DNA of 64,000 nt. It comes from Parcubacteria group bacterium GW2011_GWA2_42_14. GTDB lineage: Bacteria; Patescibacteriota; Minisyncoccia; Sungbacterales; GWA2-42-14. The DNA is taken from the NCBI GenBank assembly GCA_000998135.1, contig LCCV01000004.1:21681-85680 (forward strand). Direction: 5' to 3'. Position numbers and translations under genes: made by a program. Within the stretch, counting starts at the first letter, position 1, and each line of letters begins with the position of its first letter. A model generated the notes under the pieces. That model saw nothing but the letters and a program-made list of their open reading frames with translations. It was not told where the DNA came from and did no database searches. Positions 3,656-58,875 of this stretch are shown piece by piece.

Positions 3656-3679
3656 ACCCCGCGGTTTTTAAATTTCTCA
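3656..3679. terminator. intrinsic terminator, bidirectional
   Basis: CCGCGG-TTAACC-CCGCGG hairpin followed by a T-run. It sits between convergent genes. Confidence 0.5.
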
Positions 3680-3692
3680 ATCCGGGCTTTTG

Positions 3693-4238
3693 TCACTCAA
3701 TAAAATCAAGTTCGTCTAAAGATTTTTCGTAGCCGTCAATGGCCTTGTCAATTTCTTGGCGAGAAACAGGCCGGTTGGGGTCATGAGCTATTAAATTCCT
3801 GATTTTGTGCGCTTCCCACAATTCATCAATGGAATTAAGTTTGGAGCGGTCAAATTGTTTCAGCCGTTCTCCCATAGTTTCTCCCTGAAGGCCGATACGC
3901 TTCAGTAAATCGTCCGTAATGGAGTCGGCTTCAATTACGGCGAGTTTCCAGTCGGATGGATTGGGAGAGGCGGCTTTGTCCAAAACGCTTTGCCATTTTT
4001 GGGAAACATCAGTTTTCATGGAATCCGGAATTTTTCCGAAACTTTCTTCAACTATTTCTTCTATCGCTTCAAGCGCGGTTTTTTTAGGGCGGCGCAAACG
4101 GAAAAATAGAACATTTATATAAACGATGGCGGCAAAAAATATTATGGAAAAAAAACCGGCAAAAATTTTAATCCAAAAAATCAGGGTTTCTCCGCCCGAA
4201 GAATAAAACCAGTCTAAAAAGTTAAAATAAAGTTCCAT
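3693..4238 (-). CDS. hypothetical membrane protein
   Basis: 181 aa with hydrophobic N-terminal segments. No recognised domain. Confidence 0.4.
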   Translation of the reverse strand: MELYFNFLDWFYSSGGETLIFWIKIFAGFFSIIFFAAIVYINVLFFRLRRPKKTALEAIEEIVEESFGKIPDSMKTDVSQKWQSVLDKAASPNPSDWKLAVIEADSITDDLLKRIGLQGETMGERLKQFDRSKLNSIDELWEAHKIRNLIAHDPNRPVSRQEIDKAIDGYEKSLDELDFIE

Positions 4239-4454
4239 AATTGAATTGGTACTGATTGAAACTTGTTTCTTGCTTCGTTCGAAACGAAACTCATAGAAAC
4301 TAAATCTTCCGTCATTCTTCTCCCCCTAATACTTAGGAAGTAGGAATTAAAGAGGGTGGAGTTAATTTCGCGAGTCCCGAGCACGCCGAGGGATGAGCAA
4401 GTTTCTATTAATTTTTATGAATATTTTGAATGCCGAAAAACAGAGTTGGAAATC

Positions 4455-5918
4455 TCATAAAATTTTTTCCAATTGCGCGGCTATATTAAAAACTCTATCC
4501 TCCTGAAACCACGGGGCGATAAACTGGATTCCGACCGGCAATTTTTTACCTTCTTGCTCAACCCCTCGGCCATGCTCGGGGTAAACCCATCCGGCATTCA
4601 TGGAAAGGCCGGGCAAGCCCGCTAAATTGACGGCAACCGTGTAAATATCGGCCAAATACATTTTTAACGGGTCATCAGTTCTTTCTCCGAATTTAAACGC
4701 GGGGGTCGGAGAGGTCGGCCCGGCAATGATATCAACTTCTTTAAACGCTTTTTCAAAATCTTCTTTAATTAACCGCCTGACTTTCTGGGCCTTAAGATAA
4801 TAAGCGTCATAATAACCGGCGGAAAGCGTATATGTTCCGAGCATTATCCGTCTTTTTACTTCATCTCCAAAACCCTCGGCCCGCGTTTTAGCGTAGATAT
4901 CGTATAAACTTGTTTCTTGTCTCTTGTCGCTTGTCACTAATCCATACCGGATTCCATCAAACCGCGCGAGATTAGCCGATACTTCCGCCGGCATAATTAT
5001 ATAGTATGCGGCTAAAGCATATTCAGATATAGGCAAAGATATTTCCTTTATTTCATGGCCCAAGTCCTGAAGTTTTTTTATCGCATCACGTACAATTTTT
5101 TCTACATCAGAATCAAGGCCCTGACCAAAATACTCTTTAGGCAGTCCGATTTTGAATTTAAGATTTGGGATTTGGGATTTGGGATTTGATTCGACAGTTG
5201 TCGAATCTAACGGGTCTTTTCCCTTAATCACATCAAAAACAATTTTGGCGTCTTCAGCTGTTTTGGTTAAAGGACCGATTTGGTCAAGCGAAGAAGCCAT
5301 TGCTATAAGACCAGAACGCGAAACCATGCCATAAGTCGGTTTTAGGCCCACAACTCCGCAAAAAGAGGCGGGCTGACGGATGGAGCCACCGGTATCAGAC
5401 CCAAGGGCGGAAATACACATGTTTGCCGCAACAGCCGCGGCAGAACCGCCGGAAGAGCCGCCCGGAACGCAAGATGGGTCATGGGGATTTTTAGTCGGTT
5501 TAAATGCGGAATTTTCGGTTGAAGAACCCATGGCAAATTCATCCATATTGGTTCTGCCCAAAAAAATCGCACCTGTTTTTTTCATACGGGCAATAGCAGT
5601 CGCGTCATAGGACGCTTCGTAGTTTTCCAAAATTTTTGACGCGGCCGAGACACGTTTTCCCTCAATAAAAATATTGTCTTTAACAGCAAAAGGAATGCCC
5701 CAAAGAGGGGGCAATTCGTTAAAATCGGACGTTGCTCCATCCAGCCGTTTTGCTTCATTAAGCGCGTCTTCCCCATAGACCTCGAGATAGGCATTCAGTT
5801 CTTTATTTTTATCAATCGCTTTCAGGCAATCAGAAACAAGCTCTGCTATGGAAAATTTTTTGCTCCGTAAACCATCCTGAACTTGTTTAATTGTTAATTC
5901 GCAAAGCTCCATTCTCAT
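4455..5918 (-). CDS. gatA: Glu-tRNA(Gln)/Asp-tRNA(Asn) amidotransferase subunit A
   Basis: Amidase signature GGSSGGSAAAVA. 487 aa. Ends in TGA. Contains a repeat-derived in-frame insert (5148-5220). Confidence 0.9.
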   Translation of the reverse strand: MRMELCELTIKQVQDGLRSKKFSIAELVSDCLKAIDKNKELNAYLEVYGEDALNEAKRLDGATSDFNELPPLWGIPFAVKDNIFIEGKRVSAASKILENYEASYDATAIARMKKTGAIFLGRTNMDEFAMGSSTENSAFKPTKNPHDPSCVPGGSSGGSAAAVAANMCISALGSDTGGSIRQPASFCGVVGLKPTYGMVSRSGLIAMASSLDQIGPLTKTAEDAKIVFDVIKGKDPLDSTTVESNPKSQIPNLKFKIGLPKEYFGQGLDSDVEKIVRDAIKKLQDLGHEIKEISLPISEYALAAYYIIMPAEVSANLARFDGIRYGLVTSDKRQETSLYDIYAKTRAEGFGDEVKRRIMLGTYTLSAGYYDAYYLKAQKVRRLIKEDFEKAFKEVDIIAGPTSPTPAFKFGERTDDPLKMYLADIYTVAVNLAGLPGLSMNAGWVYPEHGRGVEQEGKKLPVGIQFIAPWFQEDRVFNIAAQLEKIL

Positions 5919-6774: not shown

Positions 6775-6844
6775 ATAGTTTTAATGATAAATTACCTTAA
6801 TACAAAAATCAATTCTTTAAATTCCAAAATTTGGATTCATAATC

Positions 6845-6958
6845 TCAAAAAATCCAAAATCCTAATACCCAAATCCCGAATAAATTCAAATTTTAAAATT
6901 CAAAATAGTTTCAACATTTGGTCATTCGGGATTTGAAATTTTGAATTTGGGATTTCAA
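6845..6958. repeat. MITE-like repeat, family F1 (AAATCCCAAATCCCGAATAAATTCAAATTTTAAAATTCAAAAT ... inverted partner)
   Basis: Internal inverted repeat. Homologous copy at 10631-10752. Fragments lie inside gatA and gatB. Confidence 0.65.
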
Positions 6959-9466: not shown

Positions 9467-10621
9467 TTAACACTGCCACGCCGGATCTCCCGGGTCTCCG
9501 GTCGGCTTTTTATAGTTATATTCCTTTAAAACTTCATTATCCTGAAGGGTTTTTGAAAAAATTTTTATTTCATCCATAATTCCCTGGAAATTCTGGGCTA
9601 AATTATCAATATTTAATCCGAGTCGCAGCGGTTCATTGCCCTGAGTCAGACTTTCTCCGCGGGGGATAGGAGAGCCTAAAATAATGCCGTTTATATAAAA
9701 TCTTACCTGCGACCCGTCGTAAGTAACCGCGGCATGCGTCCACCTGTTGAGGGTGGTTGCTCCGACCGCGGCGGAATCAGTCGTGAATTCCGTTCCGGCC
9801 GAATCTTTAAATTTAAAACGCAAGTTAAAATTTCCGGTTACCGGCTGGAACAGATAAAAACCGTATGTTTCTTCGGTAGCCCCCGCTCCTTTTTTTAAAA
9901 TAGTTTTGTATCCGTTGACAGCGCTTTTATTACAAACCCAGGAGGTTATGGAAATCGGCCAGTTGAGATTTATGCTTGATGAATTTGGAAACGTTACGCG
10001 GTCATTTTCCGTGTCAAAATACTGCAGTGCTCCGCCGAATACTACCAGCGGAATCGTATTTTGTCTTATTGGGTCTTCTGTTTCAACGCTTGTGGAAAGA
10101 CCCAAAACGCCGTCATTATCGTTGGCCGTCCAGTCAAAAACCGTTTGGCTTGATTCATTGTCAAATCTCCACCAGCCCGCCAAGTTCTCTGCTTCAAGCA
10201 TGGGATACTTAAAAAAGAACGAGCGCTTGGAAAGAAATGAGGAAGTTGTGTCACAGGGCGATCCTCCCGGATATTGTCCTACTCCTAGAATTTCAGTGTA
10301 GCCGGTTCCGGTTTTTTTTGACACTTTTACCGAATTGCAGGCGTTGTTGGAGGCGGTTATTAGCGGGGTGGTCCAGCAATCGTTTGAAAGATTCTGACAA
10401 ATGGCACGGGAAACTCTGTCAAGATAAACCGTTTTTTCAACTATTTCGTCAGCCGCGTAAAGCGCGAAAAACGATGCTCGTATGTCGCCGGAAAGCATAA
10501 GTTCGCTGTAAATAATATCAAATATTCCGAGGGAAATTGAGAGCATTAAAGAGAGCAAAAAGACGGTAAGGAGAAGACTTATACCTCGTTCTTTTTTTAA
10601 TTTTTTCTGCCGCGCTTTCAT
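9467..10621 (-). CDS. pilus-associated protein: N-terminal hydrophobic pilin-like segment plus C-terminal LamG (concanavalin-like) domain
   Basis: MKARQKKLKKERGISLLLTVFLL... N-terminus. C-terminal RFYINGI...FQGIMDEIKIF resembles LamG. Last gene of the pilin operon. The upstream in-frame ATG at 10660 lies inside repeat F1. Confidence 0.5.
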   Translation of the reverse strand: MKARQKKLKKERGISLLLTVFLLSLMLSISLGIFDIIYSELMLSGDIRASFFALYAADEIVEKTVYLDRVSRAICQNLSNDCWTTPLITASNNACNSVKVSKKTGTGYTEILGVGQYPGGSPCDTTSSFLSKRSFFFKYPMLEAENLAGWWRFDNESSQTVFDWTANDNDGVLGLSTSVETEDPIRQNTIPLVVFGGALQYFDTENDRVTFPNSSSINLNWPISITSWVCNKSAVNGYKTILKKGAGATEETYGFYLFQPVTGNFNLRFKFKDSAGTEFTTDSAAVGATTLNRWTHAAVTYDGSQVRFYINGIILGSPIPRGESLTQGNEPLRLGLNIDNLAQNFQGIMDEIKIFSKTLQDNEVLKEYNYKKPTGDPGDPAWQC

Positions 10622-10630
10622 ATTGTTTTT

Positions 10631-10752
10631 AAATCCAAAATCCCAATATCTAAATCTCAAATAAATTCAAATTTCAAAATTCAAATTAGTTTCGGCATTT
10701 GGTCACTTGATTTTTGATATTATTTAGGATTTGAGATTTTGAATTTGGAATT
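10631..10752. repeat. MITE-like repeat, family F1 (second copy)
   Basis: Aligns with 6845-6958 over about 115 bp. Confidence 0.65.
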
Positions 10753-10763
10753 TTAAAGGAATT

Positions 10764-11342
10764 TTAAAGGTTGACATCTCTCACTCTCTGCGTTACCGTT
10801 GTCTGCAAATTCATCGTGGTGTAAAGCCGGAGCTTGGGGTCAAAGGCCTTGGCTTTGAAAGAAATGGTTAAGCGGGGCTGGCCGTCATCGCCGGCAGAGT
10901 CAGTTCCGGTAACCCTTATGATTAACGTTTCAACAATAACTTCCGGCGCGGTTACCGGAGTGCCGTTGGCGCAATCGGGGTCAGTTGTCCAATTGTTTAT
11001 TTTATAAATTCCGCCTGGTAAATCGGGGTCGGGTCCGCTCGGACCATCGGGGTCGGGCGGGTCATAAAAAGCATATCCTATCGCGTTATTGAACTGGTCG
11101 CGAAAATTAATTTGGGTATTGCTTTGTCCGTTGCAGGCCTCAAGCAAAAAACCGGTTCCGGTTCTTATTTCTTTGGTAATGGATTCAATCCCGAATCTGA
11201 CGTTATCCACGACATTTTGAATGGCCGCGGCTTTATATTGGGCGTTTTTGGCGGCAACTAAAATATTGGCGGTTACCATCGCCACGAAAGCAAAAATTCC
11301 CAAAGCTACGGTTGTTTCAAGAAGTGATACTCCGCGTTTCAT
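10764..11342 (-). CDS. type IV pilin-like (minor pilin or pseudopilin)
   Basis: MKRGVSLLETTVALGIFAFV: class III signal, G then VSLLE with Glu at +5. Confidence 0.65.
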   Translation of the reverse strand: MKRGVSLLETTVALGIFAFVAMVTANILVAAKNAQYKAAAIQNVVDNVRFGIESITKEIRTGTGFLLEACNGQSNTQINFRDQFNNAIGYAFYDPPDPDGPSGPDPDLPGGIYKINNWTTDPDCANGTPVTAPEVIVETLIIRVTGTDSAGDDGQPRLTISFKAKAFDPKLRLYTTMNLQTTVTQRVRDVNL

Positions 11343-31236: not shown

Positions 31237-31307
31237 GCGAGATTGGTTTAGTGGTAAAACGAGTGCTTCCCAAGCATTAGACAGGAGTTCGATTCTCCTA
31301 TCTCGCA
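31237..31307 (+). tRNA. tRNA-Gly (anticodon CCC)
   Basis: Manual fold: acceptor GCGAGAT/ATCTCGC with G1-C72, C2-G71, G3-C70; anticodon loop TTCCCAA; T-arm AGGAG-TTCGATT-CTCCT. No encoded CCA. Confidence 0.7.
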
Positions 31308-38943: not shown

Positions 38944-39034
38944 CCACGTTAAAGGCCATAATACGGCCTTTTTTCATAAGCAACACCGAGTGTTGCTTAT
39001 TTGGCTGGCGGAAAATAATAGGTATAATGGATTT

Positions 39035-40348
39035 ATGAAGAAATATTTTATTGCCAGTTTGGCCTCTTTCGGAATTATCGGCGCTTTTTGGCTGTCTGCC
39101 AATTTTAATATTGTCAATATTTCCGGGCTGTGGAATAAAACGCCTTCGCAGGGCCTTGCTCAAAAAGAGGAAAAAACAAATGAACCGGAAAAACCGCGTG
39201 AAAAAACAAAAGAAGAATTGGTTGCCGAAGCCCTGGAAAAATCAAATAATATTAAAGGGGTTTATATGACCGCGGCCGTTGCCACCGACAATGGGGCCGC
39301 TTCCAAACGTCTTCGCCAATCACTTGTGGATTTGGTTAAGACAACGGAATTAAATGGGATTGTTATTGATATCAAAGAAACTGACGGGGTTTTTCTTCCA
39401 GAATCTCTGAAAAAATTTATTGAAGAATTGCATAAAGACGATATTTGGGTGATTGCGCGTTTGGTCGTTTTTAACGACACGGTTGAGGCCAAAGCAAATC
39501 CAAAAATAGCATTAAAACGCATCAATGGAAAATTATGGCTAGACCGGCGGGGAAATGGCTGGCTGGATCCGGCAAGTCAAGAGGCCTGGGATTATATTGC
39601 CGGAATTTCTAAAAAAGCAATTGATTATGGATTTGATGAGATTCAATACGACTATATAAGATTTCCATCTGACGGCGATACAAAAAATATTGTCTACCCT
39701 GTGTATAAATCTAAAACAACTCCTAAATATGTTGTCTTGAAATCATTTTTTGAATATATCAGCAAGGCATTGAAAGAATATAAACCCAGTATAATTCTTT
39801 CGGCTGACCTTTTTGGGTACGTGGCCACACAAGCTAATGATTTGGGAGTTGGGCAGAGAATTGAAGACATCGGCAACAGTTTTGATTATATTTCTTTTAT
39901 GCTTTATCCGAGCCACTATTATTCCGGTTTCCAGGTTCCGGCAGATTCTGTTCGCGGACTCCCCGCCGTTTATTTTCCCTACCGGGGAAAAGTCGTAAAA
40001 GATTTGGCTTCCAATCGGCCTTATGAAGTCGTGCATCGTTCATTGCTTTTCGCCATGGATATTTTGTCGGGAAGAGTTGCCACTTCATCTTTGGCTGGCG
40101 TTAACGCAAAAAAAATGGCTACTTCAACGTTGATTGTGCGGGAATCCGAAATTAAGCCGTTAAGCAAATCCCGGCTTCGGCCATGGCTTCAGGATTTTGA
40201 TTTGTCCGCCGACACTTCCAGAGGCATAAAGTACGACGTGGAAAAGGTCAGGGCGCAAATTATGGCCTCCGAAAACGCCGGCGCTTCCGGCTGGCTCTTG
40301 TGGAATCCGTCCAATGTTTATACTAAAGAAGCTTTGCAGTTAAAGTAG
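39035..40348 (+). CDS. putative TIM-barrel glycoside-hydrolase-like protein (GHL/DUF4015-type)
   Basis: N-terminal TM segment. IKGVYMTA... NGIVIDIKETDG ... FDEIQYDYIRFP pattern. Its last 27 codons are duplicated at 41773-41852. The upstream in-frame ATG at 38990 is a possible alternative start. Confidence 0.45.
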   Translation: MKKYFIASLASFGIIGAFWLSANFNIVNISGLWNKTPSQGLAQKEEKTNEPEKPREKTKEELVAEALEKSNNIKGVYMTAAVATDNGAASKRLRQSLVDLVKTTELNGIVIDIKETDGVFLPESLKKFIEELHKDDIWVIARLVVFNDTVEAKANPKIALKRINGKLWLDRRGNGWLDPASQEAWDYIAGISKKAIDYGFDEIQYDYIRFPSDGDTKNIVYPVYKSKTTPKYVVLKSFFEYISKALKEYKPSIILSADLFGYVATQANDLGVGQRIEDIGNSFDYISFMLYPSHYYSGFQVPADSVRGLPAVYFPYRGKVVKDLASNRPYEVVHRSLLFAMDILSGRVATSSLAGVNAKKMATSTLIVRESEIKPLSKSRLRPWLQDFDLSADTSRGIKYDVEKVRAQIMASENAGASGWLLWNPSNVYTKEALQLK

Positions 40349-40360
40349 ATTGTCCAGCTC

Positions 40361-40403
40361 TTGTAAATTAACCTCATTTCGATTATAATCGAAATGAGGT
40401 TAA
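40361..40403 (+). promoter_or_regulatory. putative autoregulated promoter: TTGTAA, 17 nt, TATAAT, with the -10 centred in a 16-bp perfect palindrome (TTAACCTCATTTCGAT|TATAAT|CGAAATGAGGTTAA)
   Basis: Read directly. Immediately upstream of the wHTH (AbiEi-like) gene. Confidence 0.5.
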
Positions 40404-40429
40404 TTTTTATCAATAAAAATCGAAACAAT

Positions 40430-41023
40430 ATGCTGAAAAAAGAAGCAATTTGGCGGGAAATTTTAATTCAGGCCCGAATGAATAAAAAGGCAATATTTAC
40501 CCAAAAAGAACTTGCGGCTTATTTTGGCTTTTCTCTAAGCACCGTTTTTAATGCCCTTAAAGTTTTACGGGCGGCGAACATTATATCGGTTAGCGGCAGG
40601 AATTTTCGTTTGGAATCATATCAAAAACTGCTTTATCTCTGGGCTTCGTTTAGGACATTTCGTAATGATTTAGCATATAGCGCGCGAATCGCGCTTGATC
40701 CAAAAAAGATAGAATCATCAGTTCCTCCCGACAGCGACTTTGGTCTTTATAGCGCGTCTGTTCTTTTATATCATATTGAGCCGGCTGACTACGACCATAT
40801 ATATCTGTATGCTGACGAGGCGCGCATCGCCGAAATTTTTGAACGATTTCCCGGGGCGGATCTTTCCTCCAAAAATCCTAATTTTTTTATTCTTAAAAAA
40901 GATCAATGGCTCACGCGGTATGCGGAAATGCCGCTTGAACAGATTTTTGTTGATATTTGGAATGCGCCGGAATGGTATGCAAAAGATTTTTTGAAAAATA
41001 TAGAGGATAAACTTTTGCCGTAA
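40430..41023 (+). CDS. winged-HTH regulator / antitoxin, AbiEi-like
   Basis: N-terminal wHTH (FTQKELAAYFGFSLSTVFNALKVLRAANII) plus a C-terminal domain. Paired with a downstream nucleotidyltransferase. The upstream in-frame ATG at 40394 is a possible alternative start. Confidence 0.45.
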   Translation: MLKKEAIWREILIQARMNKKAIFTQKELAAYFGFSLSTVFNALKVLRAANIISVSGRNFRLESYQKLLYLWASFRTFRNDLAYSARIALDPKKIESSVPPDSDFGLYSASVLLYHIEPADYDHIYLYADEARIAEIFERFPGADLSSKNPNFFILKKDQWLTRYAEMPLEQIFVDIWNAPEWYAKDFLKNIEDKLLP

Positions 41024-41035
41024 GGGCAATAGACC

Positions 41036-41128
41036 TGTTGCTTAATAATTTTTTGGGAAAATTTGATGCAAAAAACCCTTATTTTAAGCCACTAATTTTT
41101 TAAAAAAACGGCTAAAATCTTAATAGAC
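41036..41128. repeat. element F8 (AATAGACCTGTTGCTTAATA ... TTAATAGAC); its core is inverted relative to the copy at 55382-55478
   Basis: The central 70 bp is the exact reverse complement of the corresponding segment at 55400-55470. Flanked by TTAATA/TATTAA. Confidence 0.6.
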
Positions 41129-41140
41129 GAAATAATAAAT

Positions 41141-41764
41141 ATGGAACAATTTTGGCACAATATAATTACTGATAAGTCTTTTGTTTTTTTGCAGAAATTA
41201 AGAAAGAAGTTCAAATTTGTTTTAATCGGCGGCTGGGCGGTTTATTTTTATACCCATTCGCTTAAATCAAAGGATATTGATATCATCGTCAATTTTGAAG
41301 AACTGGGGCGTCTTCGTGAATCTTTTGACGTGAGAAAAAACGATCGGCTGAAAAAATATGAAATCCAGCAAGCCGGATTTGATATTGATATTTATGTTCC
41401 GCATTGGTCGGAACTCGGCCTGCCGCTTGAGGACGTTCTCAATACAGCAACGCTTATTGAGGGTTTTCGGGTTCCGGAAAAAGAGGTACTATTCGCGTTA
41501 AAACTATTTGCGTATTCACAAAGAAAATCTTCGCTAAAGGGAAAAAAAGATATGATTGATATCCTAAGTCTTTTATATTCTGGCGGTGCCCGGTTTCCAT
41601 CCCTTTTTAAAATAATTGAAAAATATAATGCCCGCGGCATCGGCGCGGAGCTTAAGGAGATTTTGACGACAGTTTTTGAAGTAAAAGAGTTAAATCTAAA
41701 CCGGAAGCATTTTTCGGACTTTAAGAAACCGATTCTCAAAGAATTGCAATCGAGAAATTTTTAA
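41141..41764 (+). CDS. nucleotidyltransferase-fold protein, AbiEii-like toxin candidate
   Basis: VLIGGWAVYFY ... KDIDIIV: an NTase G[GS] motif followed by DxD. Confidence 0.45.
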   Translation: MEQFWHNIITDKSFVFLQKLRKKFKFVLIGGWAVYFYTHSLKSKDIDIIVNFEELGRLRESFDVRKNDRLKKYEIQQAGFDIDIYVPHWSELGLPLEDVLNTATLIEGFRVPEKEVLFALKLFAYSQRKSSLKGKKDMIDILSLLYSGGARFPSLFKIIEKYNARGIGAELKEILTTVFEVKELNLNRKHFSDFKKPILKELQSRNF

Positions 41765-41772
41765 ATTTCCCT

Positions 41773-41852
41773 AATTATGGCCCCCGAAAACGCCGGCGCT
41801 TCTGGCTGGCTCTTGTGGAATCCGTCCAATGTTTATACTAAAGAGGCCTTAA
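41773..41852 (+). repeat. direct repeat: displaced duplicate of the 3' end of the GH-like gene (about 80 bp, about 95% identical to 40262-40336)
   Basis: ATTATGGCCCCCGAAAACGCCGGCGCTTCTGGCTGGCTCTTGTGGAATCCGTCCAATGTTTATACTAAAGAGGC compared with the gene copy; it would encode ...NVYTKEALRGR*. Confidence 0.7.
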
Positions 41853-53059: not shown

Positions 53060-53173
53060 ATGATTCAGGATAAAAATATAACGCCGGTGATAATTCTAGC
53101 CGCGGGCCGAGGCCGGCGGCTGATGCCGTTTACGGCGGACAGGCCGAAGTGTTTGGTGGCGGCTGGAAAGTAG
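53060..53173 (+). pseudogene. truncated duplicate of the 5' end of the NTP-transferase gene at 55495
   Basis: Encodes MIQDKNITPVIILAAGRGRRLMPFTADRPKCLVAAGK*. The DNA is about 90% identical to 55540-55615. Confidence 0.6.
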
Positions 53174-53248: not shown

Positions 53249-54115
53249 ATGGATAAGCAAAACGGGTTAATAAGAAAACTAAAAGAGTATTTTGAAAAGC
53301 GCGATGACGTGGCGATGGCTTTTTTATTCGGGTCGCGGGCCGAAGATCGGCGGCATTCCGGTTCCGACTGGGATATTGCCGTATATTTTAAACCAGAGGT
53401 GGAACGAACCGAATGGGAAGAACATAACCGCGAGTACCCGGAAGAAACCCGTGTCTGGGGCGACTGTGTTGATATTTTAAAAACGGATAAAGTGGATTTG
53501 CTAGTGCTTAATCGGGCCCCAGCTACCATTGCCGATTCGGCCATACGCGGCGTCCCGTTAGTGGTAAAAGACCGCGGACTCTGGTTAGAGTTTATGCTTA
53601 TTATTACCAGCGCTGCTGAAGATTTGAGAGAATTTGCCCGTGATTATTACGAAATTTATATGCGCTCAAAATCTCTTACCTTGCGCGACGCGGAGAGATT
53701 AGGCAGAATTATTGAGTTTATTAATAATCAAATGACTCTTTATTCGGTTTTTCGCGAGCTTACTTTTGGAGAATACGAGAAGGATTTGATTAAACGCGGA
53801 GCGGCAGAGCGCTGGGTTGAGAATATGGTTAACTCGACAATGGATATTTCTAAAATAGTTCTTTCCTCCAGCAAAAAGCCCATGCCTTACGGCTATGCGG
53901 ACACGATTCGCGTTGCTCTGCTTTATTTAAACATTAATGATGGGTTTTGGCAAAAATTTTTGGATTGGGTTAAGCTCCGGAACGCTTTGGCTCACGAATA
54001 TACTGATATTAAGTGGAAGAAAATTGAAGATTTTGCCAAAACCAGCGAACCTTATTTTCAGACCTTAGTTAAATCAGCCCAAACATTTTTGGAAAGAGAA
54101 AGAGAAGGCGTTTAG
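53249..54115 (+). CDS. fused minimal nucleotidyltransferase + HEPN (DUF86) protein
   Basis: N-terminal FLFGSRAEDRRHSGSDWDIAVY (GS...DxD). C-terminal LRNALAHEY (Rx4-6H). Confidence 0.65.
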   Translation: MDKQNGLIRKLKEYFEKRDDVAMAFLFGSRAEDRRHSGSDWDIAVYFKPEVERTEWEEHNREYPEETRVWGDCVDILKTDKVDLLVLNRAPATIADSAIRGVPLVVKDRGLWLEFMLIITSAAEDLREFARDYYEIYMRSKSLTLRDAERLGRIIEFINNQMTLYSVFRELTFGEYEKDLIKRGAAERWVENMVNSTMDISKIVLSSSKKPMPYGYADTIRVALLYLNINDGFWQKFLDWVKLRNALAHEYTDIKWKKIEDFAKTSEPYFQTLVKSAQTFLEREREGV

Positions 54116-54142
54116 CGTTAAAAATCCTCAATAAATCTCAAT

Positions 54143-54205
54143 AAAATTTTTCATCCCGCCACTCTAGCCAAGGGCGGGATTTATCAAGTTTCATTGATAT
54201 TTTAA
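54143..54205. repeat. hairpin repeat F7 (TTTTTCATCCCGCC-loop-GGCGGGATTTATCAA)
   Basis: 8-bp stem ATCCCGCC/GGCGGGAT. Second copy at 55262-55322. Together they bracket the 54533-55245 gene pair. Confidence 0.6.
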
Positions 54206-54532
54206 TTTCGTCCGCAAGAATTCCCCGCGGCAAGCCGCGGGGATGAATTGCGGAGCACGAAATTAACCCAGCACCAAGTTTTTCGATAATCTTCTGATAA
54301 CGCAATTGCAAGCCGCAGGCGATTCCGTGAAATAAACAAGTGATTTAAGATAACCGTTTTCGAACTTTGGCGCTGGGTAATGAATATAAAATAAGATACC
54401 CCGCGTCGCTTGGCGCGGGGTGACAATAAATTCATTAAGCGAAGGCCGTCGTAAAAGAAGGGCGTAAAACGGCAGAAAGTGGATGATAGAGGGAGTTTGA
54501 CCAGGAATCAATAGGTATGATACAGTTTATAT

Positions 54533-54766
54533 ATGGTTATATTAACGCAAAAAAAACGTTTTAAATCACGCGAGCTTATTATTGATTTTGAAAGGTATCG
54601 CGGTCAACACGTGGCGATTTTTAATAATCGCGTAATCGGACGGGGCTCTTCCGCGACGGAGGCAATTAAGGAGGCTTTGCGTTTTTCTCCTCGCCTCGAG
54701 CGTTCTCAATTGATACTATTTTTCGTTCCTAAACAGCCGATTTTTATCTACTTTTTTCAAGCATGA
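54533..54766 (+). CDS. small hypothetical protein, cotranscribed with an aspartic protease
   Basis: 77 aa. Its stop overlaps the downstream start (ATGA). Confidence 0.3.
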   Translation: MVILTQKKRFKSRELIIDFERYRGQHVAIFNNRVIGRGSSATEAIKEALRFSPRLERSQLILFFVPKQPIFIYFFQA

Positions 54767-55245
54767 CAAGTATGAAGGGAATAATTTATCCGTATCGTAT
54801 ACGGCTGCGCTATGATGGCGGCATTGAAACTTTGCCGCTTATTTTATCCAGAATTAAATATGAACGCGGCGAACCTTTGACTGTTCTTTGCCTTTTGGAT
54901 TCCGGCGCGCAGGTCTCATTGCTTTCTAAAGCTGACGCAGACGAACTTAATATTGTTTTGGCTGATGGAGAAAAAATGGTTGTGGGCGGGGTTGGTGGTG
55001 AAGAAATAATTGGCTATCGGCACAATATTACTATTGATATTGGGGGAGTATCGTTTAGCGCGCCTGCTGTTTTCGCGATACGTGACGATGTGCCAAGAGT
55101 GCTTGGACGAGATGGCGTCTTTAATAATTTTTTCATTATTTTTGATGAAAAACGGCGCCGCGCCGCGCTCTTAAAATATCAAGCGGCTGCGATTACCGTG
55201 ATGGAAAAAGAAATTTTTAGTCGATTACCGATTGAGCCGCTATGA
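54763..55245 (+). CDS. retropepsin-like (clan AA) aspartic protease
   Basis: LLDSGAQVSLL contains the D-S-G-A catalytic motif; about 160 aa. Confidence 0.55.
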   Translation: MTSMKGIIYPYRIRLRYDGGIETLPLILSRIKYERGEPLTVLCLLDSGAQVSLLSKADADELNIVLADGEKMVVGGVGGEEIIGYRHNITIDIGGVSFSAPAVFAIRDDVPRVLGRDGVFNNFFIIFDEKRRRAALLKYQAAAITVMEKEIFSRLPIEPL

Positions 55246-55261
55246 GTTTTTTGATTCCCTA

Positions 55262-55322
55262 AAAGATTTTTCATCCCGCCCCTTATTTAATGGCGGGATT
55301 TATCAAATTTTACCGATGTTTT
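55262..55322. repeat. hairpin repeat F7 (copy 2)
   Basis: Same stem as 54153-54180 with a different loop. Confidence 0.6.
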
Positions 55323-55381
55323 TATGGCCGGTCTATTAAGCAAATGTTAGTATTATTGCACTCGCGGATGGCGTTTCCTAT

Positions 55382-55478
55382 AATAGACCTGTTGCTTATT
55401 AAGATTTTAGCCGTTTTTTTAAAAAATTAGTGGCTTAAAATAAGGGTTTTTTGCATCAAATTTTCCCAAAAAATTATT
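55382..55478. repeat. element F8 (copy 2; core inverted relative to 41036-41128)
   Basis: See 41036-41128. Confidence 0.6.
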
Positions 55479-55494
55479 AATGCGGAACAAAGCC

Positions 55495-56286
55495 ATGGTT
55501 TCAAAACCGGAAAAATCTAAGCATGATATACGCGTTTTAATCCTTGCCGCGGGCCGAGGCCGGCGGCTGATGCCTTATACGGCGGACAGGCCCAAGTGTT
55601 TGGTGGAGGTAGGTGGCCGGCCGATTTTATTTTATCAGCTGCGGGCTCTGGAAAAACACGGCATTAAAAACGTTGTTATAGTTGTCGGTTATCAGGCGGA
55701 AAAAATCAAAGATTATGTTCGCGATAATTTTTCCGGTTTAAAAGTTGAGTTTGTTTATAATCCTGATTACTTATCCACTAACGATATTTATTCATTGTAT
55801 CTGGCGCGTTCTTATTTGAATGACGGCGTTATTATTCTTGATTCCGATGTTTTGTTTCATTCGAAAATGCTTTCCGAATTATCAGAGTATCATTCCGGTC
55901 GAAGCGCTATTTGTGTCAGAGTCGGCAGCTGCGGAGACGAAGAAATGAAAGTGGGGGTTAATTCCAAAGGGATGGTCGTTCGCCTTAGTAAGGGCTTGCC
56001 GCCTGAAGAAACAGTTGGTGAGTCCATGGGAATATCTTTTTTTTCAGATAAATTTTCAAATTATCTCTCGCGTACCTTGGAAAAGATTATTGATATGGGC
56101 GGGATTCTTTTATATAGAGAGGCGGCAATTGAAAGAGTTATTTCTGAACATGCGGAACCATTGCATCTTTTGAATATAAGCCGGTATCCCGCTATTGAAA
56201 TTGATTTTCCGGAAGACATAGAAAGAGCCGAGAAAGAGATTTTGCCGCAAATAATTGGTGAATTTAAATTGACACAGTATAGATAA
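55495..56286 (+). CDS. sugar-phosphate / phospho-alcohol nucleotidyltransferase (NTP_transferase fold)
   Basis: ILAAGRGRRLMPYTADRPKCLVEVGGRPIL signature (G-x-G-x-R-L). The upstream in-frame ATG at 55480 is a possible alternative start. Confidence 0.65.
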   Translation: MVSKPEKSKHDIRVLILAAGRGRRLMPYTADRPKCLVEVGGRPILFYQLRALEKHGIKNVVIVVGYQAEKIKDYVRDNFSGLKVEFVYNPDYLSTNDIYSLYLARSYLNDGVIILDSDVLFHSKMLSELSEYHSGRSAICVRVGSCGDEEMKVGVNSKGMVVRLSKGLPPEETVGESMGISFFSDKFSNYLSRTLEKIIDMGGILLYREAAIERVISEHAEPLHLLNISRYPAIEIDFPEDIERAEKEILPQIIGEFKLTQYR

Positions 56287-56983: not shown

Positions 56984-57050
56984 AGACCTTTTGCAAAATA
57001 AGCTTTCGCGTTTTTATTGTCTGAGCTTGTCGAAGACATACTTTAATTTT
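56984..57050. repeat. MITE-like repeat, family F4 (partial copy 3)
   Basis: GACCTTTTGCAAAATAAG ... CTGAGCTTGTCGAAGACATAC. Confidence 0.55.
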
Positions 57051-58188: not shown

Positions 58189-58311
58189 TTTAGTTATTGC
58201 CTGAGCTTGTCGAAGGCATACAAATAAGAATTTATAAAATAAGGTAGTCCCTCGACTCCGCTCGGGGAATATTCAATAGTTTCTTTTGCTGTTTGACGCG
58301 TTTTAAATATT

Positions 58312-58593
58312 TTGTTAATATACGCATATATGGTTAAAATTATTTCGTTGGACAAAATAGAGAATAATTTGACTGGTTTTTTTGGAGGTTTGCAAAGAAA
58401 TTCTTATGTGGTGGTGAAAAAAAACGGCAAGACGATTGCCGGTATTATTAATGCCGAGGAAATGGAGGATTTTTTAGACGCGCGTGATTTGTCTCTGCAA
58501 AAACAAATTAGGCGAAGTTATCGGGAGTTTAAAGGCGGTAAAGCCAAGCCAGCGCGTATTCTTCTTCAAAAAATTACTGCAACAGGAAAATAA
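58312..58593 (+). CDS. Phd/YefM-like antitoxin candidate
   Basis: 93 aa, directly upstream of and abutting the RelE/ParE-like gene. Confidence 0.4.
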   Translation: MLIYAYMVKIISLDKIENNLTGFFGGLQRNSYVVVKKNGKTIAGIINAEEMEDFLDARDLSLQKQIRRSYREFKGGKAKPARILLQKITATGK

Positions 58594-58875
58594 ATGGCAA
58601 AGTATATTGTTTTAACAACTTCGCTTTTTGACCGAGAAGCCGGGAAACTCGCTAAATTCCATAGGAATATCACCGATGTTTTATCCTCGGTGATTTTTGT
58701 TTTGGAAAACGACCCTTTCAATAATTCACGGCATTATGATATTCGTAAACTAGAAAGCGTTAAACACGGAGAAGGTCAGTTTCGAATTCGCTTAGGACAA
58801 TGGCGGATCCGCTATGATGTGGAGGATGATAAGGTTATTCTTTATTCTTTTCGCGACCGTAAAGAAGGGTATTGA
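58594..58875 (+). CDS. RelE/ParE-family toxin
   Basis: C-terminal WRIRYDVEDDKVILYSFRDRKEGY, typical of RelE/ParE. Confidence 0.6.
   Translation: MAKYIVLTTSLFDREAGKLAKFHRNITDVLSSVIFVLENDPFNNSRHYDIRKLESVKHGEGQFRIRLGQWRIRYDVEDDKVILYSFRDRKEGY

Follow-up and report, generated by a model that had tools for sequence, protein, structure and literature searches.

A DUF5678–retropepsin gene pair of Patescibacteria as a possible mobile toxin–antitoxin-like cassette

Stand-alone retropepsins of prokaryotes are almost uncharacterised, and their relation to the retroviral proteases and to DDI1 is an open evolutionary question. One of them, APRc of Rickettsia, is a membrane-embedded enzyme that processes autotransporters and has no partner of the family DUF5678. 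Here we describe a gene pair in which a retropepsin-like aspartic protease stands directly behind such a partner, on a 64,000-nt stretch of DNA (hereafter the window) from Parcubacteria group bacterium GW2011_GWA2_42_14 (contig LCCV01000004.1, positions 21,681 to 85,680 of the forward strand), a member of the Candidate Phyla Radiation (CPR, or Patescibacteria). The two genes and their promoter, which we call the cassette, are rated here as toxin–antitoxin (TA)-like but built of novel components. On balance we regard it as an even call whether the cassette may act as a mobile TA-like (addiction or abortive-defence) module, with the partner holding the protease in check.

With type II TA systems such as VapBC, RelBE and ParDE the cassette shares small, co-oriented, overlapping genes of which the smaller comes first, a promoter of its own, a variable context, multiple copies per genome, a patchy phylogenetic spread and a pattern of decay that spares the first gene, and the copy in the window sits in a TA-rich stretch (MntA-HepT, PIN, ParE-like). 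It departs from them in that no known toxin or antitoxin family includes either protein and the partner shows no ribbon-helix-helix (RHH), helix-turn-helix (HTH), AbrB or Phd fold; to our knowledge a clan-AA aspartic protease, the putative effector here, is unprecedented as a TA toxin. In structure, the best match of the protease is APRc (5c9b, 5c9d and 5c9f; Foldseek E = 5.7e-6, TM 0.62/0.72). Each consists of one domain of retropepsin fold with a D-[ST]-G-A motif and presumably works as a homodimer, but their sequences are only 18–19% identical, and the cassette protease, unlike APRc, has no predicted membrane segment and adds N-terminal beta-hairpins, a C-terminal helix and the partner. The proteases of feline immunodeficiency virus (FIV), equine infectious anaemia virus (EIAV) and human immunodeficiency virus type 1 (HIV-1), together with DDI1, resemble it in profile and fold, in the DSGA motif, in LGRD and in a glycine-rich flap (VVGGVGGE, where the HIV-1 protease has IGGIGGF), whereas the polyprotein or ubiquitin-like/ubiquitin-associated (UBL/UBA) context of those proteins is missing here, as is any retroelement, and the cassette holds neither a reverse transcriptase nor an integrase.

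Two further comparisons concern defence and gene capture. The cassette protease matches three PADLOC models for component B of the candidate system PDC-M08 (PDC-M08B), weakly and over the catalytic half only (best E = 7.6e-5, 20.7 bits), so that one candidate defence system already counts a small retropepsin-like protein among its components. The DUF5678 partner, by contrast, matches no PADLOC model, we found no literature on PDC-M08, and this weak match is all that connects the pair with catalogued defence systems. Integron cassettes are likewise compact, carry one or two genes and are bounded by repeats, but they are promoterless and have a conserved attC recognised by IntI, whereas here we find a promoter and target duplications that are specific to each locus.

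An earlier note, made from the letters of the window alone, had named the 160-aa product a retropepsin-like aspartic protease with a D-S-G-A motif, and three comparisons agree with that assignment. Retropepsin-type Pfam families score above their curated cut-offs on the 160-aa protein (Asp_protease_2, PF13650, 31.4 bits against 24.3; Asp_protease, PF09668, 30.3 against 26; gag-asp_proteas, PF13975, 29.4 against 28.2); a profile built on 30 relatives matches the FIV and EIAV proteases, DDI1 and Rickettsia APRc in the PDB; and an AlphaFold2 model (mean predicted local distance difference test score, pLDDT, 94.3) has APRc (5c9f) and the HIV-1 protease as its top Foldseek matches in the PDB, at a probability of 1.0. 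The protein is therefore predicted, from homology and from the model, to be an aspartic protease of retropepsin fold, with an N-terminal beta-hairpin region and a C-terminal helix as its extras. The sequence LLDSGAQVSLL is present, D46 being encoded at 54898–54900 and D46-S47-G48-A49 at 54898–54909. Across the 30 relatives the D and G of D-S-G-A are invariant and the S and A nearly so, while the P, L, G and R of PRVLGR(D/E)G are invariant or nearly invariant; in the window protein the flap-like, glycine-rich segment VVGGVGGEEIIGY occupies residues 73–85 and PRVLGRDG residues 111–118. With these motifs the protease looks catalytically competent. NCBI annotates a start at 54772, which would give 157 aa. 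NCBIfam has no model for either protein, and PHROGs gave no match.

The smaller, upstream gene had been put down as encoding an unknown 77-aa protein. The open reading frame (ORF) of 77 aa is real, but Pfam places its product in DUF5678, and a profile built from 17 cassette partners retrieved 618 proteins, among which PF18929 was found in 120 of the 120 matches listed. The protein is strongly basic (isoelectric point 10.9 in the window, family median 10.4). Its AlphaFold2 model (pLDDT 85) has a small alpha/beta core followed by a C-terminal tail (V65-P66...Y73; VPxxLxVVY) which is poorly ordered in the model and conserved in the family alignment, V65, P66 and Y73 being invariant. Searches of the PDB and BFVD returned no informative match in fold or sequence, the match to RHH_1 reached only E = 0.11, and no known DNA-binding fold was seen.

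An exhaustive profile search for the protease yielded 1,325 clusters at E <= 1e-3 and 138 at E <= 1e-10, mostly of stand-alone proteins of ~130–160 aa; counted at 50% identity, the wider family comes to about 1,300 clusters. When GTDB was scanned at one genome per species with an alignment of five protease sequences, 15 loci were recovered, all from the CPR and spread over six lineages (Wolfe-, Sung-, Giovannoni-, Uhr- and Ryanbacteria and Saccharibacteria); a partner homologue lies directly upstream on the same strand in 14 of the 14 that have upstream DNA, as it does in one further locus (L001). In the nearest relative that is not identical (49% and 41% identity) the two genes overlap in the same way, and among more distant proteases of ~135 aa a DUF5678-like ORF stands immediately upstream in four of four, one of them unannotated and one a weak match. 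A scan of metagenomes seeded on the partner gave 63 unique partner genes, followed by a full protease in 46, a truncated one in six, a fusion through an in-frame deletion in one and a protease cut by the contig end in another; five partners stand alone, and four have no room downstream. A protease or its remnant thus follows 54 of the 59 assessable partners (92%). The earlier note had suspected translational coupling and asked whether the small gene is conserved with the protease: the partner stop and the protease start do overlap (ATGA), the overlap across loci is usually 4 to 8 nt, and the doubts it had voiced, that aspartic-protease homology might be lacking and the small ORF not conserved, are clearly dispelled. 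Pairwise distances between partners follow those between proteases (r = 0.77, permutation p = 0.001, 58 unique pairs). The two genes are inherited as a unit and co-diverge, and adjacent, co-oriented small genes whose association is kept across lineages are what is looked for in a type II TA system. In the literature on DUF5678, retropepsins, PDC-M08 and the TA systems of Patescibacteria we found no description of this pairing.

The pair is preceded by promoter elements so close to the partner gene that little room is left for a leader. In the window 6 nt separate the end of a predicted promoter from the partner ATG, with no Shine–Dalgarno sequence in between. The arrangement recurs: of 72 unique partner genes, 68 have a -10 hexamer ending 4–11 nt ahead of the ATG and 59 a -35 element as well, as compared with 19% and 6%, respectively, of random ATGs from the same loci, while a Shine–Dalgarno sequence was found in just one of the 72. 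From this layout the cassette is predicted to carry a sigma-70-type promoter of its own and, because that promoter ends ~6 nt before an ATG that lacks a Shine–Dalgarno sequence, the partner mRNA is probably leaderless. TA operons in mycobacteria are reportedly enriched for leaderless transcripts.

Where the pair has decayed, it is mainly the protease gene that is damaged. At 10 or more unique loci the protease is truncated or lost and the partner intact, through N-terminal deletions that remove the catalytic half (L025, L026, L042, L049, L068, L086), through a frameshift (L045) or otherwise (L036, L054, L103). One such case comes from the same population as the window: in L007 (1702–1995) a 7-nt deletion leaves a 97-aa product of which residues 1–73 alone match, and otherwise the locus, partner included, does not differ from the window. 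Among assessable loci no intact protease without a partner was seen. Such an asymmetry, in which the protease is destroyed and the partner kept, would be expected if the protease were a toxin. In the fusion mentioned above (L059, 3090–3620), an in-frame deletion joins residues ~1–50 of the partner to the protease from about residue 18, so that the conserved C-terminal tail of the one and the N-terminus of the other are both missing.

The surroundings of the cassette change from locus to locus. Among 150 ORFs flanking related cassettes we found varied housekeeping genes and no recurrent third component, and thus the suggestion that the pair keeps company with TA modules stands for the TA-rich stretch of the window and fails as a general statement. 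We compared 300 nt upstream of each pair with 300 nt downstream, using mismatched loci as the control, and in 22 of 44 unique cassettes the flanking direct repeats scored above every control. About 17 of these are strong (19–81 nt, 84–100% identity). Their sequences are unrelated between loci, each being a piece of the local target, for instance the 3' end of the upstream gene, the 5' end of the downstream gene with its ATG, or the DNA just past the CCA end of a tRNA gene. With its variable context, multiple copies and insertion scars, all of them marks of an accessory or mobile element, the pair does appear to be cassette-borne, as had been proposed, and we interpret the cassette as a self-contained, horizontally mobile unit, typical of CPR/Patescibacteria and found in unrelated genomic contexts. 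Contigs with an identical MntA-HepT gene or nucleotidyltransferase gene, in which we sought an empty site, all contain the pair. Two individual loci deserve mention. A Wolfebacteria contig (L012) holds two divergent DUF5678–protease pairs (877–1573 and 3666–4471), 2 kb apart, within 3 kb of sequence and interspersed with PIN-domain and RelE/ParE-like genes; and the L059 cassette lies at the 5' end of an htpX-like gene, the start of which is duplicated on both sides. L035 and L036 are repeat-flanked at an htpX 5' end as well, and L062 at a tRNA flank.

In the window the duplicated sequence contains the two hairpins that had first drawn attention to the locus. The pattern ATCCCGCC-N(11-12)-GGCGGGAT occurs at 54153–54180 and 55273–55299 and at no further site in the 64 kb, and 100 shuffles gave 0 matches, so the hairpins are real and not a product of chance. 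As described earlier, they have identical 8-bp stems and different loops (ACTCTAGCCAAG and CCTTATTTAAT), and they bracket the pair; the left one does not abut it, however, ~290 nt of structured DNA and the promoter-like site lying in between. The immediate flanks are identical as well, each flanking string (TTTTTCATCCCGCC and GGCGGGATTTATCAA) being present in exactly two copies in the window, and the stems turn out to be part of a repeat unit longer than was claimed, ~72 nt with ~80% identity (blastn: 64 nt aligned, 79.7% identity, E = 1.7e-8; Table 1). The left copy begins 21 nt 3' of the MntA-HepT stop codon and the right copy 10 nt 3' of that of the protease. Hairpin 1 is the tip of a longer imperfect stem, and the region of the left copy folds at -20.4 kcal/mol (z = -4.9). 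Both hairpins have GC-rich stems 28–38 nt past a stop codon, with loops of 11–12 nt; the tail that follows (TTTATCAA(A/G)TTT) is only moderately T-rich, and a consensus scan for terminators called neither. We read the left copy as target DNA in its original place, the terminator-like region behind MntA-HepT into which the cassette would have inserted. As insertion duplicated this region, the pair would come to stand between two hairpins of the same stem. Since the duplication the stems have been preserved in both copies and the loops have drifted.

Table 1. Features at and around the cassette (window positions).
Feature	Position	Strand	Description
Relic 5' end of a sugar nucleotidyltransferase gene	53062..53172	+	MIQDKNITPVIILAAGRGRRLMPFTADRPKCLVAAGK, then premature stop; own ATG
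MntA-HepT fusion	53249..54115	+	Nucleotidyltransferase and HEPN RNase in one 288-aa polypeptide; related to type VII TA
Left repeat copy	54136..54208	+	Hairpin 1: stem 54153-54160 / 54173-54180, 12-nt loop
Structured non-coding spacer, ~290 nt	54209..54496	.	Between left repeat and cassette promoter
Sigma-70-like promoter	54497..54526	+	TTGACC-18 nt-TACAGT, TG-extended
Partner gene, 77 aa	54533..54766	+	DUF5678, PF18929 28.0 bits (cut-off 23.2)
Retropepsin-like aspartic protease, 160 aa	54763..55245	+	Pfam, PDB profile matches, AlphaFold2 model
Right repeat copy	55256..55328	+	Hairpin 2: 55273-55280 / 55292-55299, 11-nt loop

Copies with identical stems and different loops on both sides of a gene pair superficially recall attC or repetitive extragenic palindrome (REP) architecture, and the hairpins had accordingly been proposed as boundaries of the cassette; the pair would then be an integron-type or other site-specific cassette, with the hairpins as its recombination sites. 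That idea we now consider very improbable. The hairpin was sought at ~100 related loci and found at no other cassette, the sole other match (L041) lying ~900 nt away from the pair and being judged unrelated; the motif has only two copies in 64 kb; and what is repeated is 72 nt of unremarkable intergenic DNA beginning shortly past the MntA-HepT stop. Integron cassettes would show one structured site at many boundaries, whereas the repeats at related cassettes are mutually unrelated and stem from local gene ends or a tRNA flank. Because those repeats are locus-specific and made of target sequence, the hairpins are here best taken as duplicated target DNA from the MntA-HepT terminator region and not as a signature of the cassette. 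That the right-hand hairpin is a twister-P3 self-cleaving ribozyme, as a minus-strand cmscan match might suggest (RF03154, 55260–55338, 25.9 bits, E = 0.002–0.015), seems almost out of the question: the score is well under the gathering score of 39.9, the match rests on a generic 8-bp hairpin with the conserved consensus positions (GCgGUUcCA, GAGgA, UAA, AC) mostly mismatched or deleted in the alignment, and the left copy has no such match. At permissive thresholds the hits in the region, this candidate and terminator-like NsiR4 matches among them, were all rejected as sub-threshold noise; at the gathering threshold Rfam finds one tRNA in the whole window and nothing else. If not the hairpins, the two proteins might themselves drive insertion and so make the long target duplications. 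A cassette reduced to a promoter and two genes nevertheless shows duplications at half of its loci, and a strongly basic partner would suit nucleic-acid binding. This, too, seems highly unlikely to us, since the protease carries the catalytic motif of a peptidase, no known recombinase or nuclease has this fold, and similar duplications surround inserts that lack the pair, namely the 72-nt repeat around MntA-HepT, a 78-nt repeat around 40336–41772 and the tRNA-adjacent repeats at 31.3 kb. As gene-end duplications of the same kind bracket these other inserts, the process that makes them seems generic to this genome and not encoded by the pair, or else acts in trans. It may also have placed other accessory genes of this genome by the same copying of 20–80 nt at gene ends, terminators and tRNA flanks. 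Conceivable routes to such long duplications are a Campbell-type reintegration of looped-out circles or a microhomology-mediated insertion.

As to what the pair does, we favour the TA-like reading because the small gene comes first and is coupled to the second, the promoter is the cassette's own, the distribution is patchy, the unit is mobile and sometimes multi-copy, and decay strikes the protease preferentially. In this scheme the protease, which keeps D-S-G-A, the glycine-rich flap and LGR(D/E)G, would be an active homodimeric clan-AA enzyme and the harmful effector of the module. The partner, small and basic, would be synthesised ahead of the protease in an amount coupled to it, and would bind the protease and hold it inactive; its conserved tail VPxxLxVVY might plausibly act as a pseudo-substrate or block dimerisation. 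Once the partner was lost or titrated, the freed protease might cleave proteins of the cell or of an invader and so bring about growth arrest. Several observations weigh against this scheme. The asymmetry of decay is partly a matter of ascertainment, as the large sample was seeded on the partner, and the protease gene, 2.3 times longer, is the bigger mutational target; in the sample seeded on the protease (14 loci) just two proteases are defective as compared with no partners. We know of no aspartic-protease toxin among characterised TA systems. The partner lacks the usual DNA-binding folds of antitoxins, the immediate neighbours of related cassettes are usually not TA or defence genes, and relatives of either protein were found in none of the viral contigs, plasmids and phage genomes of IMG/VR, PLSDB and INPHARED, which leaves the pair without a tie to known mobile replicons. 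Nor does an aspartic-protease toxin appear in a census of TA systems (Makarova, 2009). Strict co-occurrence, finally, suits an obligate cofactor or substrate equally well. A rather unlikely competitor is a two-subunit enzyme or an enzyme–substrate pair, in which DUF5678 would be an obligatory activator, specificity subunit, chaperone or a precursor processed by the protease, and the function accessory and non-toxic, for example in the maturation or quality control of proteins. Any two proteins that depend on each other in a heteromeric complex could show such co-occurrence, translational coupling and co-divergence, the partner has no recognisable antitoxin fold, and its conserved, hydrophobic tail ending in Tyr could be a site of cleavage or recognition. 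Yet the patchy spread among species, the occurrence of more than one copy per contig, the variable contexts and the insertion scars would be unusual for a housekeeping function, and partners often outlive destroyed proteases, which would be odd if they served the protease only. More specific than the TA-like reading, and held more tentatively than it, is our suggestion that this might be the first TA or abortive-defence family with an HIV-protease-like effector and a dedicated small inhibitor, spreading in the CPR by an undescribed insertion process that copies 20–80 nt of its target.

Whichever function applies, stand-alone retropepsins gain a concrete context, in that a DUF5678 partner accompanies every relative whose genomic context is readable. 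If the partner is a proteinaceous retropepsin inhibitor, the pair would offer a natural model for protein-based inhibition and a function for DUF5678; if the protease is a toxin, TA and defence systems would gain an effector of a new chemical kind, and this in a poorly studied radiation of bacteria where such modules abound. The long target duplications, different at each locus and present around other inserts too, hint that genes may enter CPR genomes by a route so far unrecognised.

The spacer between the left repeat and the promoter is peculiar to the window copy. It contains a 64-nt near-palindrome (54203–54266), a long-range stem (54267–54379) and a GC hairpin (54398–54421) that scores as a minus-strand terminator in a terminator scan, and its fold z-scores are -3.8 on the plus strand and -4.7 on the minus strand. 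It belongs to no Rfam family, similar DNA was seen at no other locus and related cassettes have no counterpart, the distance from the end of the repeat to the called start of the partner ORF being 17–224 nt in relatives and <=130 nt in most of them. The ORFs of the 347-nt spacer gave no Pfam match.

Upstream, the cassette adjoins a MntA-HepT gene in which MntA (antitoxin) and HepT (toxin), usually two genes in type VII TA systems, form one polypeptide. Before it lies the relic of a gene that begins MIQDKNITPVIILAAGRGRRLMPF... and whose core (53091–53162) is 92% identical over 72 nt to 55538–55609, within the intact nucleotidyltransferase gene at 55480–56286. Because these copies bracket a 2.4-kb block made up of MntA-HepT and the cassette, the arrangement implies nested insertions into what would be a polysaccharide or teichoic-acid-type locus. 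The window is matched by assemblies of Candidatus Sungbacteria (CPR/Patescibacteria) from Rifle groundwater, for example MHQY01000033.1, and every public contig is longer than the window by 87 nt at the junction of 55479 and 55480, directly before the ATG of the nucleotidyltransferase gene. An exact inverted repeat of 83 nt joins this place (55397–55479) to a second intergenic site 14 kb away (41043–41125), with a counterpart at 10949–11035 in L003. In the public contigs the copy at ~55.4 kb runs on into GCAACAGGTCTA, which is the inverse of TAGACCTGTTGC (55384–55395), and the element resembles a miniature inverted-repeat transposable element (MITE) of ~107 nt with 12-nt terminal inverted repeats.

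Several other inserts in the window are bounded by repeats. A direct repeat of 78 nt (95% identity; 40258–40335 and 41773–41850), consisting of the 3' end of the ORF at 38990–40348, brackets a 1.5-kb insert with an HTH/RepL-like protein (40394–41023) and an unknown 207-aa protein, which is the same style of gene-end duplication as at the cassette. Between 31237 and 34134, several repeats of ~35–70 nt, in three copies each (starting, for example, at 31306, 32182 and 33133), begin at the 3' end of a tRNA gene (31237–31307) and separate small ORFs without Pfam matches; the region looks like a series of tandem insertions at a tRNA-adjacent hot spot. Two adjacent 93-aa ORFs at 58312–58875 resemble a TA pair, the second matching ParE_toxin at a sub-threshold 21.1 bits (cut-off 23). 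A 28-nt direct repeat (93%; 57014–57041 and 58194–58221) surrounds a DegT-type aminotransferase gene, and a 105-nt direct repeat (80%; 6836–6940 and 10617–10721) surrounds an NAD-dependent DNA ligase gene together with a LamG-domain gene.

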